From Escherichia phage IK_ECO1: a DNA stretch of 43,567 nucleotides. The translations under genes were made by a program, and so were the position numbers. Of this stretch, positions 11,851 to 43,567 are shown in pieces (the first letter of the stretch is position 1; each line of letters begins with the position of its first letter). The notes under the pieces were generated by a model. It worked only from the letters and a program-made list of their open reading frames with translations. It searched no databases and was not told the DNA's origin. The stretch lies in sequence record PP975109.1. One strand, 5' to 3'.

Positions 11851-13706
11851 TGGTATCGGTGAAGACTGCGCGAAGACTGCGCATGCTCAACCAGAAACTT
11901 ACTGGTTATAGTGTGAACCCGCGCAGTATTCCCAAAGAGGAGCGCGAGGATATCGCCATGATGATGGCGGCTACCCTCAGTAATTTCAGGGAGTTCGCAT
12001 ACATCGGTATGCGTTTCCTAGGCTTTACGCTCACGGACATGCAAGCCGACATTGCAGAGTATATGCAGAAGGGTCCTAGAAAGCGTATGGTGGCTGCGCA
12101 GCGTGGTGAGGCTAAATCTACGCTAGCTGCATTATACGCTGTCTGGAGGCTCATCCAGGACCAATCCTGCCGTATACTGATTGTATCTGGTGCGGAGAAG
12201 CAGGCGTCCGACGTTGCGAACTTAATCATTCGTATGTTGGAAACCTGGCCGCTGTTGTGTTACTTGAAGGCTGACCCTACGCGCGGGGACCGTACTTCAT
12301 TCGAAGGTTATGATGTCAACTGCGACCTGAAACCACTGGATAAGTCTGCTAGCGTAGCCTGTGTAGGTATCACTGCATCACTGCAGGGTAAGCGTGCTGA
12401 CCTCTTGATTCCAGATGATATTGAGACTACTAAGAACGGTTTAACACAAACCCAGCGTGAGCAGTTGCTGATGATTTCGAAAGACTTCGCAGCTATCTGT
12501 ACACATGGGGATACACTGTACCTGGGTACACCGCAGACCAAGGACAGTATTTATAAAACCCTGCCGGGACGTGGCTTTGAAGTACGAGTATGGCCTGGAC
12601 GTATCCCGTCAGTTGAAATGGAAGAACGATATGGAAGTACACTTGCTCCTTATATACTGCAGCTCATTGAGCGGGGTTATAAACGTACCGGGTTCGGAGT
12701 AGACGGAACACTAGGTGAGAGCACAGACCCCGGTCGTTACGATGAGGATGCGCTGATTGAGAAGGAGCTGGACTTCGGTCCAGAGGGCTTCCAGCTGCAG
12801 TACATGCTCGATACAACCTTATCGGACCAGATGCGTACCCGTATCAAGTTGTCGGATATGCTTGTGTACTCCGGTAGCCTAGATTCCTCACCTGAGACCT
12901 TCTCCTATATTGCAGACCGTCGGTACTTGTACCAGCATGAGCATGAGGGGATTATGGGTCAGCAGATGTACTTCCCGGCATTCTACGGAGATATGCACTT
13001 GCCGTATCAGCACAAGGTGTTGGTAGTGGACCCAGCTGGTTGTGGTGGGGATGAAGTCTCCTATGCTGCGGGCGGGGCTGCTAACTCATACATTCATCTG
13101 TTCTCCGTTGGGGGCTTCCAAGGAGGTGTGAGCACCGAGAATATCGACAAGCTCATCGACCTGTGCGTAGAGTTAGACATCTCTGACATGGTGGTAGAGA
13201 GTAACATGGGGCACGGTACCGTGTCTATGCTTATTCTGAACCGCTTACGAGAGCGTCACCTTGCTGGTATTGGTGTGCGTGACATTAACAACACCACGCA
13301 GAAAGAACGTCGTATCATAGACACAATCAGTCCAGTAACTCGACGACACCGCCTAGTGGTGCATGAGCGTGCTATTCACGATGATATTGGGACTTGTATG
13401 CTATACTCCCGAGATCGTCGCTGGTTGTACTCTGCGTTCGCACAGCTCGCAGGTATTACGTATGACCGGGGTAGCTTGGCTAAGGATGACCGAGCAGACG
13501 CCATCGCTATGATGGTAGCAGTACTGAACGGGCATCTGGTAGAAGACGAGAAAGTGGTAGCTGCACGAGAGTCTGAGAAGCAGGCACTAGCATTCATCAA
13601 TAACCCGCTGGACTGGGCGCAGGGTATGGTCCAGAAACAGTTGCGGGGAGTCGCTGCACGGCTGCAAGGTCGGGGTAGAGGCAAACAACATAGAGGAAGA
13701 CGATAA
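11850..13706 (+). CDS. Terminase large subunit (DNA maturase B), 618 aa
   Basis: Size and position typical of T7 gp19; nuclease-like segment VLVVDPAGCGGDEVSYA; start overlaps upstream stop. Confidence 0.7.
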   Translation: MVSVKTARRLRMLNQKLTGYSVNPRSIPKEEREDIAMMMAATLSNFREFAYIGMRFLGFTLTDMQADIAEYMQKGPRKRMVAAQRGEAKSTLAALYAVWRLIQDQSCRILIVSGAEKQASDVANLIIRMLETWPLLCYLKADPTRGDRTSFEGYDVNCDLKPLDKSASVACVGITASLQGKRADLLIPDDIETTKNGLTQTQREQLLMISKDFAAICTHGDTLYLGTPQTKDSIYKTLPGRGFEVRVWPGRIPSVEMEERYGSTLAPYILQLIERGYKRTGFGVDGTLGESTDPGRYDEDALIEKELDFGPEGFQLQYMLDTTLSDQMRTRIKLSDMLVYSGSLDSSPETFSYIADRRYLYQHEHEGIMGQQMYFPAFYGDMHLPYQHKVLVVDPAGCGGDEVSYAAGGAANSYIHLFSVGGFQGGVSTENIDKLIDLCVELDISDMVVESNMGHGTVSMLILNRLRERHLAGIGVRDINNTTQKERRIIDTISPVTRRHRLVVHERAIHDDIGTCMLYSRDRRWLYSAFAQLAGITYDRGSLAKDDRADAIAMMVAVLNGHLVEDEKVVAARESEKQALAFINNPLDWAQGMVQKQLRGVAARLQGRGRGKQHRGRR

Positions 13707-14083
13707 TGGCATCAATCATCGCGGCTAAATCTGCGGAGGTCCAGTACACTATTGTGGGTAAGAGCCAGAACCTCGAGAAAGAGGTGGCCCCGGATTACAA
13801 TGCCGGGTTTGTGGGTACGGGTGCGCTGGATAAATTCAACACGTTCTTTACCTACATGGAGTCCCAAGGCTACTCGGCTACAGCTGTCGGGGAATCCTTT
13901 AAGGATGATGGCAACCTGCAGGCGCGACTGTTCTCCATGCTGTTCCAGCTTAGCAAGACCGGTTACGTAGCGCTCACTGGTACAGGTATGCCGCTAGGTG
14001 AGGGTTCTGGTACGGACTTCGACAACTCATTCACGGCCCTACAGTCGGCCTTCGTCGCAGCGACTAACGCTGCTGCAGCATAA
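13706..14083 (+). CDS. Hypothetical protein, 125 aa
   Basis: ORF start overlapping terminase stop; no recognisable motif. Confidence 0.4.
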   Translation: MASIIAAKSAEVQYTIVGKSQNLEKEVAPDYNAGFVGTGALDKFNTFFTYMESQGYSATAVGESFKDDGNLQARLFSMLFQLSKTGYVALTGTGMPLGEGSGTDFDNSFTALQSAFVAATNAAAA

Positions 14084-14096
14084 TAGGAGAATCACT

Positions 14097-14279
14097 ATGG
14101 CAATTGCTAAGGCAACACAAACACAGCAGCAGGAGCTGCTGCGTCAACTGAACATTCTGGGTAAGGACCTCTACGCAATCCTTACTCAGCCCCAGGATGT
14201 AGCTCAGACCGGTGCGGCGTTCGACGCTAAGATTGCTGCCCTAGAAGCAGCTATCACTGCTGTGAAGACGGCCAGCTAA
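14097..14279 (+). CDS. Hypothetical protein, 60 aa
   Basis: ATG at 14097 preceded by RBS taggaga; translationally coupled to next gene. Confidence 0.4.
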   Translation: MAIAKATQTQQQELLRQLNILGKDLYAILTQPQDVAQTGAAFDAKIAALEAAITAVKTAS

Positions 14280-14683
14280 TGCGTAAACTGGTCGCTGGGT
14301 TACTGCTCGTAGCTACTCTGACTGGTTGCTCAGCGACCTCTGCACTTACCGGCTTAGTTGGTTCTAAGCCGGAAGTATCTGCACAGGTTGGTGCTGAGAA
14401 TACCAAGCAGATGCTCGGGCTGAATAATAAGGTGGACTCCAGCACCACCAACAAGACTGATGTACAGGATTCTAACGTAGGTACACTGGATACTTCTAGC
14501 AAGAAGAAAGTGCAGACTATTAGCACCGGCACAATCCAAGCAGATCGCCTACAAGTGGTTAACAACGATAGTTACAGCCTTATCCTCGCCGGATTAGCAG
14601 GGGCCAGTATTCCTTTGGTCTTCCTAGTGACCATTCTGGTGATTCGTAAGCTGTTTAGGAAGAAGGGTCAGCAGGATGATTAA
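14279..14683 (+). CDS. Lipoprotein with C-terminal transmembrane helix, 134 aa; unimolecular-spanin-like architecture
   Basis: N-terminal signal peptide with lipobox LTGC (MRKLVAGLLLVATLTGCS), Ser/Thr/Lys-rich middle, C-terminal hydrophobic helix LILAGLAGASIPLVFLVTILVI followed by RKLFRKK; adjacent to holin and lysozyme. Confidence 0.55.
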   Translation: MRKLVAGLLLVATLTGCSATSALTGLVGSKPEVSAQVGAENTKQMLGLNNKVDSSTTNKTDVQDSNVGTLDTSSKKKVQTISTGTIQADRLQVVNNDSYSLILAGLAGASIPLVFLVTILVIRKLFRKKGQQDD

Positions 14684-14927
14684 AGTAGGAGACGTAGTTG
14701 GGGCAGACCTCGCTACCCGGGCAGGTGCAGCTGTTACTGGCGCTACAGTCTCAGGAGGCTGGTTGGCAGAGCTAATGAGTTGGAACTGGAGTGTTATCAG
14801 CTTCATCACTGCGACGGTGTGTGCAGTGCTAACCCTGGCGTGGAATGCGTACTATAAACGACGCACATACAAGCTCCTAGAAGAGCACGCACGTAAGGGG
14901 ACTATTAAATATGAGTTTAAGGACTAG
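14676..14927 (+). CDS. Putative holin (pinholin-like), 83 aa
   Basis: Weak Gly/Ala-rich hydrophobic segment followed by a clear TM helix (WSVISFITATVCAVLTLAW) and charged C-terminus; overlaps both neighbouring lysis genes. Confidence 0.5.
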   Translation: MIKVGDVVGADLATRAGAAVTGATVSGGWLAELMSWNWSVISFITATVCAVLTLAWNAYYKRRTYKLLEEHARKGTIKYEFKD

Positions 14928-15510
14928 GGTTATAGCTGCACTCGCCGGGGCTACTATGCTTGGCGGGGCTATTACTGAGGTAATCCAGCACAATGAGGGT
15001 TTGAGCCTTACAGCCTACAAAGACAGTGCCGGTATCCCTACGATCTGCTACGGGGAGACAAAGGGTGTCAAAATGGGCCAGAGAGCCACTCTGAGCGACT
15101 GTCAGAAGCAACTGATAGAATCAGCAGGGGAACATGCTAAGGCTCTTGACGGGCTTCCTATGCAGCTCTCTGACGTGGCTCTGATAGGGTCTGTAGACTT
15201 CATCTATAACGTAGGCGTAGCCGGCTTCAATGGCAGCGCCGTGAAACGGCACCTCAAAAACCTTGATTACGCAGCGGCTGGAAAGGCTGTGCTGGACTGG
15301 CGTTACATTAGCAAGTACCAGCAGAAGTCCCCAGGCACCGGTTGGGTGTACAAGGGTGGCAACCGCTGGACCTTTGATTGCTCTCAGTATATTAACGGGC
15401 AGCGTAATAAGGTGTGCTGGGGCCTCTGGGAGCGCCGTCAGTGGGAAGCCAAAGCTATTGGCAATGAGTTTAAATCCATGCAGGCAGCAGTAGCTGCTAT
15501 GCCTAAATAA
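14911..15510 (+). CDS. Endolysin, phage lysozyme (GH24, T4-lysozyme-like) with SAR-like N-terminus, 199 aa
   Basis: Catalytic pattern E-x8-D-x5-T in HNEGLSLTAYKDSAGIPTICYGET matches T4 lysozyme spacing; N-terminal weakly hydrophobic stretch VIAALAGATMLGGAIT. Confidence 0.7.
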   Translation: MSLRTRVIAALAGATMLGGAITEVIQHNEGLSLTAYKDSAGIPTICYGETKGVKMGQRATLSDCQKQLIESAGEHAKALDGLPMQLSDVALIGSVDFIYNVGVAGFNGSAVKRHLKNLDYAAAGKAVLDWRYISKYQQKSPGTGWVYKGGNRWTFDCSQYINGQRNKVCWGLWERRQWEAKAIGNEFKSMQAAVAAMPK

Positions 15511-15519
15511 GGAAATAGT

Positions 15520-17643
15520 ATGGCTCTCGTACGTAATATTACTGTCCCGAGTTATTACTCTGGACTTAACGTTGTTGACTACGGGGTAGTAGGCGACGGT
15601 ATCTCGGATGATACAGTAGCCTATACTCGAACTGTTGAAGCTGCTAATGCACTGCAACTGCCTGTATATGTACCTCCAGGTATGCGTGTCCGTATCACCG
15701 GTAGTTCTAACATTACACATAAGTACGGTTTTAACTTTAACGGCAGTACCTTGGATATTCAAGAGTATGCTGGTAAGTTCCTGTTCCAGCGCCAGGTAGC
15801 CCCTGTTCAATACTCTGCTGGTTCGCCACTTCTTACTGCTTTAGCAAGTACTACTTTAAGCGGAACTTATAACAGTGTTATGTCAGGCCGTACAGAACTG
15901 GATAACTGCTACGTAAATATAGTTACTAACCAGCCGTACTATACCTACCGTGGGGCTGTTACTACTCGTACTGAACGTTTAGCTGTAATCCGTAACGGTA
16001 TGCTTGAGGGCACTCTTAAATATCCGCTTGCAGGTTCTAGAATCACAGGCATCACTGCATACCCTCTTCCAGATAAGGAAGTAGTGTATGAGAACGTGGT
16101 GGTGGACGTAGGTGCTAATCAGCTGCAAGGTAACCCGTTCCTGATTGAGGCCGATAAGGTACGTTTAGAGAACTGGTCTTTTAAGCAATCTAACGTACTA
16201 TTTACCTCTGTAAATCCAGTATACGTAGTCATGCGTAACTGCTTCCATATGCGCGTACGCAACTTCCAGATGCAGTGGACTACTCGTACCGCTGCTAACA
16301 ACTTTACGTACGGCGTGGCTGCTGAGTACTGTTCAGATATCGAGTTTGACTCAATGAAAGGTGTAGGCGACGGTTGGGGCATGACCGGTTTCAACGAGAA
16401 TCGTCGCTGTACCTTCAGGAACTGTCAGCTTAGCCGAATAGATACGCACCAGCCTTTCATTGAATGGTTGCGTGTGCTGGACTGTGATACCGGTCAGTGG
16501 GGTATTAGTCTAACTGCCTTAGGTGATGTTATTGTTAAAGGTGGTAGCATTACCCTGACTAACGATAGCGTTTATACAGATAAGGTAGGCTTTATACTAT
16601 TGCGTAATGAGTGCGGCGGGGTACTGGATGGTCAGTTAGTAGTTGATGATGTTACCCTCAAGAACTACACCAGTACTACAACTCAAGCCTTAGTATATCA
16701 CCGTGGGGACTTAGCAGATGCCCCACCTTCAGGTTCCCCTGTTAACTTCCAATGCAGTAGCAGTATGCTCATCAAGAACCTGCGTTCAGATGGCCGCATC
16801 GTAGAGCTTGCCCCTACCATCAACGGTGCTTCAGGTATTAAGTACCCGGCCAGTATCGTAGTTCAGGACTGTATTGAAGGTATCTACAGCTTTGCTACTA
16901 ATATAAGTACCTTTACCCCGAACAGTACGATAACTACTCCAGTCGATAACGCCTTAGGTAGTATCTCGAATCTGAAGGTACAGTTACGTAGCTGCAATAT
17001 CCGCAGTAACGTCTCCCTGGTAGATACGTCCATCCCACAGAAATTTGTAGTGGATATGCTGCTTGATGGTGTATTCGGAAACGGTGCATTCAATCCGGGA
17101 CTACAGGTTAAGTTCGGAGGTACTGTCAGCTGTGTTAACTCTGTACTGGAAGGCTTGGACTTCTTCTCAGGGGCTGCACTGGACCGGTACTTGAAGGTGT
17201 CAGTAGTAGGTGGAGGTATTCGCCACACTGGACGTTTCCGTACTGTACCTGTGAACGGGGCTAATACCTTAGTCTCGGTTATTATCCAGGGAGCTGCATT
17301 GCAGAGCACTACGGCTGCTGCATTACGTTATTATATGGTGGCGCATCTGCAAGGTTGTACCTACAGCGTAGCCGGGTCTGCCAGTACCCCTACATTAACT
17401 GTCACCCCAGATGGTAGTACTAGTTACGATACTGGGGTAGTTGGTATTAACAGTAAGAACCTAATGCAACTTACAGCCAGTGTAAGTGGGGTACTTAGAA
17501 GGGTACCGTTCTTCCTGCCTGCTAGTGGTGGTAGTACTTACGTGCAGTTAGATAACGGTGTTTACGCTAACATAACCTACAGCGGAAGTACTGTAACTGT
17601 TTCTACCACAGCAGGTTTAGGCGGGATTACGTTGGTAGGCTGA
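15520..17643 (+). CDS. Tailspike / polysaccharide depolymerase, right-handed beta-helix (pectate-lyase-like), 707 aa
   Basis: N-terminal motif NVVDYGVVGDGISDDT typical of pectate lyase 3 / beta-helix tailspikes; last structural-type gene before the non-coding region; lacks T7 fiber anchor domain. Confidence 0.6.
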   Translation: MALVRNITVPSYYSGLNVVDYGVVGDGISDDTVAYTRTVEAANALQLPVYVPPGMRVRITGSSNITHKYGFNFNGSTLDIQEYAGKFLFQRQVAPVQYSAGSPLLTALASTTLSGTYNSVMSGRTELDNCYVNIVTNQPYYTYRGAVTTRTERLAVIRNGMLEGTLKYPLAGSRITGITAYPLPDKEVVYENVVVDVGANQLQGNPFLIEADKVRLENWSFKQSNVLFTSVNPVYVVMRNCFHMRVRNFQMQWTTRTAANNFTYGVAAEYCSDIEFDSMKGVGDGWGMTGFNENRRCTFRNCQLSRIDTHQPFIEWLRVLDCDTGQWGISLTALGDVIVKGGSITLTNDSVYTDKVGFILLRNECGGVLDGQLVVDDVTLKNYTSTTTQALVYHRGDLADAPPSGSPVNFQCSSSMLIKNLRSDGRIVELAPTINGASGIKYPASIVVQDCIEGIYSFATNISTFTPNSTITTPVDNALGSISNLKVQLRSCNIRSNVSLVDTSIPQKFVVDMLLDGVFGNGAFNPGLQVKFGGTVSCVNSVLEGLDFFSGAALDRYLKVSVVGGGIRHTGRFRTVPVNGANTLVSVIIQGAALQSTTAAALRYYMVAHLQGCTYSVAGSASTPTLTVTPDGSTSYDTGVVGINSKNLMQLTASVSGVLRRVPFFLPASGGSTYVQLDNGVYANITYSGSTVTVSTTAGLGGITLVG

Positions 17644-31553: not shown

Positions 31554-32526
31554 GTTAAACACAATAAAGTTATTCACCAAAGAGCAACACGTAGATATCT
31601 TAAGCAAGCACAGTTCTAACGTGGACGCTGCGGCTGCTTACAATAAGCTTGCGGGATTAAGCGAGCCAGTGGTGTACCGCCAGATGGTTAAGTATTGGCG
31701 CAGCATCTTCCTAGACCATGGTGGTAGCAAGGGTAAGGCTGTGTCACATATGAAGGAAGCATTAAAGCTCATACAGCCAAGTCCGACTGATGACTTAGGT
31801 AAAACCTTTGTACCAGAGGTATGTCACCGCATCTTAGTGGTGGGGGATCTGCACGCCCCTTACACCCACATAGACGCTATGGACTTCTTAGAGTCTGTCC
31901 GAGACACTTACTGCCCGGACATGGTTGTACAGGTTGGGGATGAAACTGATGGGCATGCTATTTCGTTTCACGAAAGCAATCCGAACCTGGATAGCGCTGG
32001 GGTGGAGTTAGAGAAAGCCAAGCTCGTGCTGGAGGAGCTGTATGAACTATTCCCGAACCTACTGGTTTGCGATTCCAATCACGGGAGTCTGGTGTATCGC
32101 CGCGCCAAGGCTCACGGTTTACCAGTACAGTTCATTAAGAAATATCGGGACATTCTGTTCCCCGAACATGGTGCGCCTGCATGGTCGTGGGCTGACGCTT
32201 GGGTACTTAACACCCCTCTCGGCCCTGTACGTTTCCAGCACCAAGTTAGTGGTGACTTCATGCTTAACGCTTCCCACGAACGTACAAGCCTCGTCCTCGG
32301 TCATGAACATGGGCGCTTCGAGGTTCAGTATGCAGCATCAAGCACCGCTCTTTACTTCGGGGCATACGCCGGGTGCTTGATTGACCGCAAGAGTATGGCC
32401 TTTGCATACGGCAGACTCTCCCGCAAGAAACCAATCCTGGGTGTGCTGGTAATCACCGAGGGTTGCCCGCAATTAATTCCGATGCTGCTCGACGAAGATG
32501 GTCGTTGGGTTGGTCGTTCTAAATAA
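31546..32526 (+). CDS. Putative calcineurin-like metallophosphoesterase, 326 aa
   Basis: Motif order GDLHAPY, GDETDGH, CDSNHGS, LGHEHG resembles the metallophosphatase signature; read by eye. Confidence 0.45.
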   Translation: MPKLNTIKLFTKEQHVDILSKHSSNVDAAAAYNKLAGLSEPVVYRQMVKYWRSIFLDHGGSKGKAVSHMKEALKLIQPSPTDDLGKTFVPEVCHRILVVGDLHAPYTHIDAMDFLESVRDTYCPDMVVQVGDETDGHAISFHESNPNLDSAGVELEKAKLVLEELYELFPNLLVCDSNHGSLVYRRAKAHGLPVQFIKKYRDILFPEHGAPAWSWADAWVLNTPLGPVRFQHQVSGDFMLNASHERTSLVLGHEHGRFEVQYAASSTALYFGAYAGCLIDRKSMAFAYGRLSRKKPILGVLVITEGCPQLIPMLLDEDGRWVGRSK

Positions 32527-32539
32527 TAGAGAGGTAGTG

Positions 32540-32704
32540 ATGAAAATGGGAATCTGTTCTGTACTGGGCCTCATCTTCGTAACCCTGAAACTGACTGGAG
32601 TTATCGCCTGGTCTTGGCTGTGGGTGCTGCTCCCGTTCTGGGGCCCTGCTGCGCTGGCTGTAATCCTGGTGTTCGTTGCCGCCGCCGTCGCTTCAAAACG
32701 CTAA
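32540..32704 (+). CDS. Small membrane protein, 54 aa, two hydrophobic helices
   Basis: ATG 32540 after RBS gagg; sequence MKMGICSVLGLIFVTLKLTGVIAWSWLWVLLPFWGPAALAVILVFVAAAVA. Confidence 0.4.
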   Translation: MKMGICSVLGLIFVTLKLTGVIAWSWLWVLLPFWGPAALAVILVFVAAAVASKR

Positions 32705-33899: not shown

Positions 33900-34277
33900 A
33901 TGGATAAAGTACTAGATGCATACAAGAAGCTGGCCATTGCGGTCAGCGGCGCAGTTCACGATGCTACGATGGCAGATGCAGTGCGCATATACCGCCTTTG
34001 CGATGTTTATGACGCCCTGGACAAGCTCGCAGCCCTATATGGCATGGACCTGGAGCTGGCTGCCACCGCCTTCAAGGAGCACAATGACCTGGCGGCACAT
34101 GCCGATAAGTTACGAGGCGACGACCTAGTGCTTATTCGTGTAGTGGGTACACTTAGTATTGGTCTGGCGGAGATTGGTTCTTGTATCTATGACGTAGACC
34201 AGAGCCTGCGTACGCCGGAAGTAATCGGGGACATGCTTGGTACCGTGCTGGTGCTGTCTGAACTGGAGGGTAAATGA
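33900..34277 (+). CDS. Hypothetical protein, 125 aa
   Basis: ATG 33900 directly after upstream stop; track start is TTG 33897. Confidence 0.4.
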   Translation: MDKVLDAYKKLAIAVSGAVHDATMADAVRIYRLCDVYDALDKLAALYGMDLELAATAFKEHNDLAAHADKLRGDDLVLIRVVGTLSIGLAEIGSCIYDVDQSLRTPEVIGDMLGTVLVLSELEGK

Positions 34278-34438
34278 TGCGTAAAGTTATATCCTACATA
34301 TTCTTATTTCCCGCACTAGCGTTACTTGCAATTGGTTTGACGTTAATGGCGCTGGCGCTTAGTGTGGCAGGGGGCGCAAAGGGCGTGTCTGTGTTAACTC
34401 GTGCAATCCGTGCTTTTACTGATCACTTAAAGGTGTAG
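34274..34438 (+). CDS. Small membrane protein, 54 aa
   Basis: Overlaps upstream stop; hydrophobic core ISYIFLFPALALLAIGLTLMALALSVAG; below track threshold. Confidence 0.3.
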   Translation: MMRKVISYIFLFPALALLAIGLTLMALALSVAGGAKGVSVLTRAIRAFTDHLKV

Positions 34439-34441
34439 AGC

Positions 34442-34603
34442 ATGCGTAACTTCTTTGCGAAATCATTTTACTTCCTGTTAGTAGCCCCTCTAATTCCAGT
34501 GGCTATCCTGTGCTGGGTGTTTGAGAAGGTAGAGAACAGCAAGGCGCTCGCTGCATGGGAATCCTGGGCGCGTAAGTTAACTAATAAGGTTACGGGGGTC
34601 TAA
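34442..34603 (+). CDS. Small membrane protein, 53 aa
   Basis: Hydrophobic segment FYFLLVAPLIPVAILCWVF; stop overlaps next start. Confidence 0.3.
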   Translation: MRNFFAKSFYFLLVAPLIPVAILCWVFEKVENSKALAAWESWARKLTNKVTGV

Positions 34604-35571: not shown

Positions 35572-35731
35572 GTTATACTATGAGGGGAAACATGATGAAC
35601 TTGAAACTATTCTGGACGCGTTGCGTGAACGAGCACCCAAAACACATCGAAGAACAGTTGAGCATTTGGATTCTCTCATTCACGACAATGCTCTGCTGGA
35701 TGTAGTAGGGGAGATTGAACTGTGGCCCTGA
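35528..35731 (+). CDS. Hypothetical protein, 68 aa
   Basis: ATG 35528 in the track ORF 35459-35731; overlaps exonuclease 3' end in another frame. Confidence 0.3.
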   Translation: MAKMSAKEMSLRAIELYYEGKHDELETILDALRERAPKTHRRTVEHLDSLIHDNALLDVVGEIELWP

Positions 35732-36144
35732 GAAAGATTACACGTGCCCAGATTCGCTCTGTGGCTATTAAGCTTGCCAAGGACCAGGGAGGCGTATGCC
35801 TCCTTTGTGGCAAACCTTTGGACTTCACAATCAAGGGGGTAACTGGTGATTCTGTTGTCGTTGACCACGATCATATTACTGGGCGTATTCGGGGTGCTCT
35901 TCATCGCTCGTGCAATGGAGGGGAAGGCAAAGTGGCATCTGCCGCTGGGCGCTGGATTGTTGGTAGCATGCAATCTTCTAGGGCTATTGCTGAATCTCTA
36001 CGTAGGGTCGCCGATTACCTAGACCGCGAACCTACGGATATGCTATACTATACGCACAAGACGCCGGAAGAACTAGCACAGGCACAGAAGCTCAAGGCCC
36101 GCAAGGCCCGGGCACGACGTAAAGCACGGGAGATTATTAAATGA
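35722..36144 (+). CDS. Endonuclease VII-family Holliday-junction resolvase, 140 aa
   Basis: CLLCGK…VVVDHDHITGRIRGALHRSCN matches the endo VII zinc/HNH-like signature; GTG start. Confidence 0.7.
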   Translation: MALRKITRAQIRSVAIKLAKDQGGVCLLCGKPLDFTIKGVTGDSVVVDHDHITGRIRGALHRSCNGGEGKVASAAGRWIVGSMQSSRAIAESLRRVADYLDREPTDMLYYTHKTPEELAQAQKLKARKARARRKAREIIK

Positions 36145-43463: not shown

Positions 43464-43502
43464 CGCCCCTGGTGCCTTCGGGTGCCAGGGGCTTTTTTTT
43501 TT
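43464..43502 (+). terminator. Rho-independent terminator: 12-bp stem gcccctggtgcc / ggtgccaggggc, UUCG loop, T11 tail
   Basis: Seen in sequence; lies after the capsid gene cluster, analogous to T7 T-phi; the T-run is also the start of the window. Confidence 0.8.
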
Positions 43503-43567
43503 TGTCCCTGTCTTAAGGGTCCTAGGGGTCTTTAATAGAGGAACAAATATGAGAGAATTAGATGCTG

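Follow-up and report, generated by a model that had tools for sequence, protein, structure and literature searches.

A predicted unimolecular spanin of the T1 gp11 type in the KP34-like lysis cassette of Escherichia phage IK_ECO1

In the genome of Escherichia phage IK_ECO1 (sequence record PP975109.1; "the window" hereafter means the whole stretch of 43,567 nucleotides (nt) that was analyzed), positions 14279-15510 have been assigned, with a probability of roughly 0.9 as judged from the sequence, to a late-expressed KP34-like (Drulisvirus) lysis cassette that would consist of a unimolecular spanin (u-spanin), an S21-like, pinholin-type holin, and an endolysin of the signal-arrest-release (SAR) type. 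According to the open reading frame (ORF) listing, three mutually overlapping genes on the + strand encode a lipoprotein of 134 amino acids (aa), a holin of 83 aa, and a lysozyme of 199 aa. Such a cassette had been proposed in an earlier note on this DNA, and the overlaps of 8 nt between the spanin and holin genes (ATGATTAA) and of 17 nt between the holin and endolysin genes have been confirmed. The spanin gene in turn has 1 nt in common with a small gene upstream, the stop codon of the latter and the spanin start codon forming the sequence TAATG. Genes packed this tightly (overlaps of 1, 8, and 17 nt) are suggestive of co-transcription, and their translation may be coupled as well. A consensus scan for cassette signals has returned 7 promoter-like sites (9.4 expected from shuffling) and 8 terminator-like sites (4.7 expected), which is at or near the shuffle level, and in 14279-15510 it has revealed no convincing promoter or terminator and not a single terminator-like site on the + strand.

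In its nucleotide sequence, the region shows ∼94% identity to that of Escherichia phage Minorna (MK598851), which is placed by its GenBank record in the genus Drulisvirus (Autographiviridae, Slopekvirinae), and it is matched by 251 related records, mostly of Klebsiella phages. The window as a whole reads as a typical Drulisvirus/KP34-like phage genome. Phage KP34 (gp54 spanin, gp55 holin, gp56 endolysin) and Minorna carry the same three genes in the same order ahead of the tailspike gene, and in both the spanin comprises 134 aa and the holin 83 aa. The aa identities between these phages and the window amount to 93–96% for the spanin (96% to the "unimolecular spanin" of Minorna, 93% to KP34 gp54), 95–96% for the holin, and 88–95% for the endolysin, so the differences are allelic only, although the exact spanin and endolysin alleles are absent from public collections. 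The KP34-type cassette is already known: its description dates from 2015, and annotations of it exist for the nearest relative, Minorna, where the record lists unimolecular spanin, holin, and endolysin in unchanged order, preceded by the large terminase gene and two hypothetical small genes, and where the genome announcement also names all three (PMC6554615).

The 134-aa lipoprotein

The N-terminus of the 134-aa protein (MRKLVAGLLLVATLTGC) combines an n-region (MRK) and an h-region (LVAGLLLVATL) with the lipobox LTGC, whose Cys17 is the sole cysteine of the protein and is followed by Ser at the +2 position, which predicts sorting to the outer membrane. The Pfam model of the lipoprotein attachment site, LPAM_1, has matched residues 1–18 with 20.0 bits, i.e., exactly at its cut-off of 20. 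At the other end, a strongly hydrophobic segment (top 19-mer 104–122, Kyte-Doolittle (KD) value 2.40) precedes the tail RKLFRKKGQQDD with a net charge of +3. The lipobox and the C-terminal transmembrane helix with a basic tail, on which the earlier note had built its proposal of a u-spanin, have thus both been recovered, and the relationship to T1 gp11 assumed there has been borne out by a BLASTP match with 40% identity over 126 aa (E 4e-25) and by a shared architecture. Membership of a SpaninDB family requires an identity of 40% or more to a member, across no less than 40% of the length (Kongari et al. 2018), and the spanin of the window reaches 40% over 126 of its 134 aa. It furthermore belongs to PHROG 1804 (phrog_1804, "Rz-like spanin"; E 2e-50), and tblastn has found homologs in 1,140 phage records, those of KP34-like podophages at ∼90% identity or more and those of T1-like siphophages at ∼40%; the nearest spanin listed is that of phage ZH5 (97.8% identical).

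Nine spanins from two phage families have been aligned, namely those of the window, Minorna, KP34, P64441, PhiM1, Lidtsur, vB_EcoS-12210III, KP36, and T1, which represent Drulisvirus, another Slopekvirinae phage, Phimunavirus, Bonnellvirus, and three Drexlerviridae. The lipobox core G16-C17-S18 is invariant in all nine, none of which has Asp at +2 or any periplasmic Cys, and the periplasmic span covers 81–103 residues throughout. Within it, a motif with the consensus AQVGAENTKQ has been kept (Q36, G38, E40, N41, and K43 invariant). The C-terminal hydrophobic 19-mer likewise occurs in every sequence (KD 2.0–3.0), and a net-positive tail in eight of them. Given the PHROG 1804 match, the number of homolog records, and the constancy of lipobox core and anchor, this pattern lies far beyond chance. 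Moreover, the gene sits in a lysis cassette beside holin and endolysin, with a like neighborhood in eight other genomes.

T1 gp11 is reportedly the prototype of the unimolecular spanins. It shares with the window spanin the lipobox L-[ST]-G-C with Ser at +2, a periplasmic segment of ∼85 residues, the C-terminal transmembrane domain (TMD) with its basic tail, the conserved AQVGAENTKQ motif, the lack of periplasmic Cys, and a SAR-type lysozyme as partner. The T1 gp11 family has 28 members, among which KP34, F19, and NTUH-K2044-K1-1 are listed (Table 5 in Kongari et al. 2018, PMC6139136). The same study reports that T1 gp11 complements a lambda Rz/Rz1 defect, that periplasmic Cys occurs in none of the u-spanins, and that the periplasmic domain of this family, KP34 included, is predicted to start with a short helix and to continue with several beta strands. 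A single-sequence AlphaFold2 model of the window protein has recovered only the two terminal helices at a mean predicted local distance difference test (pLDDT) score of 57.5, the helix at 97–129 being the best-scoring part (pLDDT 66–82 per 10-residue block), and a structure search has found no solved structure for the spanin, only chance matches of PsbM to its TMD. Taken together, the assignment of the 134-aa protein as a u-spanin of the T1 gp11 type is supported by homology, architecture, and gene neighborhood.

A u-spanin would take the place of the two-component Rz/Rz1 pair, and such a pair has been sought throughout. No embedded Rz1-like ORF has been found in the 134-aa gene: the ORF listing shows no other-frame + strand ORF of at least 25 aa within it, and the lipobox scan no further candidate there. 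The lipobox scan, which started from every start codon in six frames of the whole 43.5-kb genome and considered signal-plus-lipobox ORFs of at least 20 aa, has yielded on the coding strand the 134-aa gene and one weak out-of-frame ORF at 35894/35915-36022, with the lipobox-like sequence VAC. The latter has been rejected as an Rz1, since the gene in which it lies (35722-36144) encodes a recombination endonuclease VII (PF02945, E 2e-12) that lacks an N-terminal TMD, its peptide is hydrophobic past the Cys, and it sits in a DNA-metabolism region. A hydropathy scan of all + strand ORFs has also detected no protein of 100–200 aa with an N-terminal TMD near the lysis genes that could serve as an inner-membrane spanin (i-spanin). 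Three small predicted membrane proteins without any Pfam match are encoded on the + strand at 32498-32704 (68 aa, two hydrophobic segments), 34274-34438 (54 aa, one segment), and 34442-34603 (53 aa, one segment); they have been discarded as i-spanins for being too short and located in the early/middle region. By six-frame lipobox and hydropathy scans, no Rz/Rz1 pair has been found genome-wide, as the earlier note had expected.

Table 1. Features of the lysis cassette (positions refer to the window).
Feature	Position	Strand	Basis
Predicted unimolecular spanin (u-spanin), T1 gp11 family, 134 aa	14279..14683	+	ORF, PHROG, BLASTP to T1 gp11
Predicted lipoprotein signal ending in lipobox LTGC (Cys17)	14279..14329	+	sequence, Pfam LPAM_1, 9-sequence alignment
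Predicted C-terminal transmembrane anchor (∼aa 100–122) and basic cytoplasmic tail RKLFRKKGQQDD	14576..14680	+	hydropathy, AlphaFold model
Holin, 83 aa, S21-like (probably pinholin-type)	14676..14927	+	PF04971, PHROG 20, EssD match, hydropathy
Predicted SAR-type endolysin, 199 aa, glycoside hydrolase family 24 (T4/P21-type lysozyme)	14911..15510	+	PF00959, PHROG 7, PDB matches
Putative SAR segment, aa 7–25 VIAALAGATMLGGAITEVI, with R4 and R6 upstream	14929..14985	+	hydropathy, composition, alignment
Catalytic motif E29-x8-D38-x5-T44 (EGLSLTAYKDSAGIPT)	14995..15042	+	regex, alignment

Endolysin and holin

The 199-aa protein is matched by PF00959 (E 4.8e-21) and PHROG 7 (endolysin; E 1e-36), and among solved structures HMMER has retrieved 3HDE as the top match, 4ZPU (RrrD), and 3HDF at E ∼1e-9. 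The entries 3HDE and 3HDF we take to be the full-length and truncated forms of R21, the SAR endolysin of phage 21. The N-terminus of the 199-aa protein (MSLRTRVIAALAGATMLGGAITEVIQHNEG) carries two Arg residues (R4, R6) and a 19-residue, moderately hydrophobic stretch (17-mer KD 1.51 and 59% Gly/Ala/Ser/Thr within residues 7–25) directly before the catalytic Glu29. The alignments to 3HDE and 4ZPU start at residue 2, so that the N-terminal hydrophobic segments align, and T1 gp12 (28% identity) is aligned from Met1. E29, D38, and T44 correspond to E35, D44, and T50 of RrrD; D38 and T44 are invariant in all nine aligned endolysins, E29 and the full triad in eight, the unrelated endolysin of Lidtsur being the exception. 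A SAR-type lysozyme, as claimed in the earlier note, is thus supported by family membership, triad, and alignment. As there is no Cys among the first 30 aa and the putative SAR segment is consequently Cys-free, analogy suggests that activation may proceed by a conformational change of the R21 type, not by disulfide isomerization as in P1 Lyz.

Near the C-terminus, the endolysin has an insertion of ∼30 aa (SKYQQKSPGTGWVYKGGNRWTFDCSQYINGQRNKVC, ∼15307-15420, residues ∼133–170) with two cysteines, C157 and C169. It is defined relative to T1 gp12 and T1-like endolysins, the alignments to RrrD and 3HDE ending at residue ∼132–139. Minorna, KP34, and PhiM1 have it too, and P64441 has a shortened form. 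The two cysteines could make this insertion a disulfide-bonded periplasmic loop.

For the 83-aa protein, PF04971 ("Bacteriophage P21 holin S") is alone among Pfam families in exceeding its gathering score (27.7 bits, gathering score 26; E 2.8e-6; residues 27–67), PHROG 20 (holin) has been assigned with E 9e-17, and BLASTP has aligned it with EssD, the S21-type holin of the DLP12 prophage (28% identity, 58 aa, E 2e-4), over the end of TMD1 and the whole of TMD2. TMD2 (aa 38–56) is clear (KD 1.8–2.1) and followed by a charged C-terminal tail, and TMD1 (∼aa 16–34) is very weakly hydrophobic (KD ∼1.0). In the EssD alignment, S42, A46, and A50 fall on the positions of what we take to be the G40/S44/G48 motif of S21. 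A public cluster with 455 members already contains the identical holin sequence, and there are members of it named "Holin, Drulisvirus". The earlier note had derived a pinholin partner from the SAR-type endolysin; a pinholin-type protein finds backing in the PF04971 and EssD matches of the holin itself, but the implication is not strict, since SAR endolysins need membrane depolarization only. Owing to the very weak hydrophobicity of TMD1 and to the single TMD predicted by other annotators, we regard the holin as a probable, not a certain, pinholin.

Proposed lysis pathway and its alternatives

In the pathway that we propose, the endolysin would be exported by Sec and held inactive by its SAR segment, tethered to the inner membrane, while the holin builds up and triggers at a set time, its small holes leading to the collapse of the proton-motive force. 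Depolarization would then free the SAR segment, and the lysozyme would refold (R21-type, with no Cys switch) and degrade the peptidoglycan. The spanin would meanwhile receive its lipid at Cys17 and be directed to the outer membrane, whereas its C-terminal helix would stop transfer and anchor it in the inner membrane, so that the protein would cross the periplasm and pass through the meshwork of murein. With the murein degraded, it would be free to disrupt the outer membrane, probably via fusion with the inner membrane.

No finding contradicts this assignment, but several points limit it. The pinholin call depends on a marginal Pfam score (27.7 against 26 bits) and a weak pairwise match (E 2e-4), and one TMD has been predicted for this holin by both the KP34 record and the Minorna paper (PMC6554615). 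G18-G19-A20 of the endolysin is a possible signal-peptidase site. In the AlphaFold2 model, spanin residues 28–96 remain at pLDDT ≤52 per 10-residue block (mostly <50) with no secondary structure assigned and give no confirmation of the beta-rich periplasmic domain described for the gp11 family, and the cassettes of KP34 and Phimunavirus have been described in silico (PMC4411677, PMC6115819).

The first of these points would fit a canonical large-hole holin, next to which the SAR endolysin would still be activated, any depolarizing holin being enough. In its favor are a PF04971 score just 1.7 bits over the cut-off, the weak EssD similarity, a TMD1 that is hardly hydrophobic and has R15, D11, and E32 nearby, and the annotations with a single TMD; besides, phage P1 combines a SAR endolysin with a holin that is not a pinholin. 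We nevertheless consider this alternative unlikely, if still plausible: the prototype pinholin belongs to the sole Pfam family that passes the threshold, TMD2 shows a small-x3-small-x3-small stripe at positions aligned with what is presumably the pore-lining motif of S21, and all but two members of the T1 gp11 family are accompanied by both pinholin and SAR endolysin (Kongari et al. 2018, PMC6139136).

It is a good deal less probable that the endolysin N-terminus serves as a conventional, cleavable Sec signal peptide, by which the enzyme would be secreted as a soluble protein into the periplasm. The R4/R6 n-region, an h-region of ∼11 residues (V7–L17), and the possible cleavage site at G18-G19-A20 agree with it, but the same segment aligns with 3HDE, RrrD (4ZPU), and T1 gp12 from Met1, it resembles SAR domains in its high Gly/Ala/Ser/Thr content (59%) and low hydropathy, and it lies right next to the catalytic Glu29. 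The same holds for R21, in which the SAR segment, once released, is said to join the active fold. A constitutively secreted active lysozyme would moreover be expected to cause premature lysis.

It is highly improbable that the 134-aa lipoprotein serves another role, e.g., in superinfection exclusion like T5 Llp or Cor, and that the outer membrane is disrupted by some other factor. The podophage members of the family are known from sequence alone, and spanin-less phages with alternative outer-membrane disruptors do exist (bioRxiv 10.1101/515445); against this stand the clear homology with T1 gp11, for which complementation of lambda Rz/Rz1 has been reported, the strict conservation of the dual membrane-anchor architecture, and the overlap of the gene with the holin gene inside the lysis cassette, which recurs in all genomes examined. 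The chance that a conventional Rz/Rz1 spanin is encoded elsewhere, with the 134-aa protein being redundant, is close to negligible, as its one weak embedded candidate (35894/35915-36022, VAC) lies in an endonuclease VII gene without N-terminal TMD, and no further + strand ORF with signal sequence and lipobox, nor an N-terminal-TMD protein near the cassette, has been found.

Returning to the cassette of u-spanin, pinholin-type holin, and SAR endolysin, it is conceivable, though quite unlikely, that the spanin-first order and the 8- and 17-nt overlaps set the spanin-to-pinholin-to-endolysin stoichiometry or timing by translational coupling, or that the endolysin insertion, specific to the clade, is an additional periplasmic element, disulfide-dependent and either regulatory or murein-binding. 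Even if true, these readings would each vary the mechanism of a known system only modestly.

Known systems, neighboring genes, and significance

The order spanin-holin-endolysin after the large terminase has been found in four podophage lineages, represented by KP34, P64441 (Slopekvirinae), PhiM1 (Phimunavirus), and Lidtsur (Bonnellvirus), and is therefore clade-typical, not anomalous. The earlier note had called this order unusual, which holds relative to T7, phiKMV, and T1 but not for the KP34-like phages, where it is conserved, published, and genus-defining. For KP34, SU503, SU552A, F19, and NTUH-K2044-K1-1, a u-spanin has been reported along with a holin of 83 residues and a SAR endolysin, the latter taken to imply a pinholin, and the spanin-holin-endolysin cassette has been used as a criterion for the genus "Kp34likevirus" (Eriksson et al. 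2015, PMC4411677); Phimunavirus carries a like cassette (Buttimer et al. 2018, PMC6115819). A literature search has returned no paper that pairs "unimolecular spanin" with the name "Drulisvirus". T1-like siphophages have the order holin-endolysin-spanin; in T1 itself (Drexlerviridae) the spanin thus comes last, whereas it comes first in the window, and the T1 holin shows only marginal similarity to that of the window (E 4e-6 over 35 aa).

Phage 21 (S21/R21) and the DLP12 prophage (EssD/RrrD) resemble the window in their PF04971 holin, the E-x8-D-x5-T triad, and the Cys-free N-terminal hydrophobic segment of the endolysin, albeit at a low identity of 27–28%. They differ in that the window holin has no dual-start (antiholin) motif at its N-terminus, that R21 and RrrD lack the two-Cys insertion of ∼30 aa near the C-terminus, and that their spanins are two-component and embedded (rzpD/rzoD), whereas the window has a single u-spanin. 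The phiKMV cassette reportedly consists of a pinholin, a SAR endolysin, Rz, and Rz1. With phiKMV and T7 (gp18.5/18.7) the window has a related podophage genome architecture in common, and with phiKMV also the strategy of pinholin and SAR endolysin, but both these phages carry two-component inner- and outer-membrane (i-/o-) spanins after the endolysin, in contrast to the single u-spanin before the holin (PMC4411677, PMC6115819).

In Lidtsur (NC_048177, 1690-3066), a u-spanin of the gp11 family with 162 aa and a periplasmic insertion of ∼20 aa is followed by a 127-aa protein labeled holin and an endolysin, both of which are unrelated to the S21/R21-type pair, the endolysin lacking E-x8-D-x5-T. 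As these two proteins align with none of the others, they have been left out of the conclusions on SAR endolysins and pinholins. The u-spanin module consequently appears to recombine independently of its partners.

Between the large terminase and the spanin, two small + strand genes encode proteins of 125 aa (13706-14083, phrog_7128) and 61 aa (14094-14279, phrog_7375), the stop codon of the latter being part of the TAATG overlap with the spanin start; both proteins lack a TMD, and both are kept in Minorna and KP34. Directly 3′ of the endolysin, a tailspike/depolymerase of 707 aa (15520-17643, + strand) begins with a pectate-lyase-like N-terminus (PF12708). The nucleotide similarity to Minorna ends at ∼15522, and the tailspike downstream is unrelated to that of Minorna: its best match among 50,697 phage records, in the Aeromonas jumbo phages CF8 and PS1, reaches only 29% aa identity, and identities to Proteus podophages are 26–27%. 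The tailspike has the appearance of an exchanged receptor-binding module that has not been sampled so far, and the host or capsule specificity of IK_ECO1 therefore probably differs from that of all close relatives. At the window ends, a direct repeat of 77 nt (1-77 and 43491-43567, one C/A mismatch) most likely reflects the overlap of a circularly closed assembly, which would give a unit genome of ∼43,490 bp and make the start of the window arbitrary. As to Minorna, its announcement (PMC6554615) describes a "myophage" with "T1-like" relatives and predicted headful packaging; taxonomy and gene content indicate a KP34-like podophage, contrary to that classification, and users of the announcement should take caution.

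The window contributes one allele to the T1 gp11 family of u-spanins and confirms IK_ECO1 as a typical Drulisvirus. The mechanism by which the outer membrane is disrupted by a single-chain, beta-rich spanin becomes no easier to address with this sequence than with T1 gp11. For the curation of genomes in phage therapy, the labels "Rz-like spanin" and "hypothetical protein" in many related records may be read as u-spanin. With regard to the family, T1 gp11-type spanins are common to Drexlerviridae siphophages and several Autographiviridae-type podophage lineages, a mosaicism of lysis genes that has already been noted and to which the present cassette conforms.

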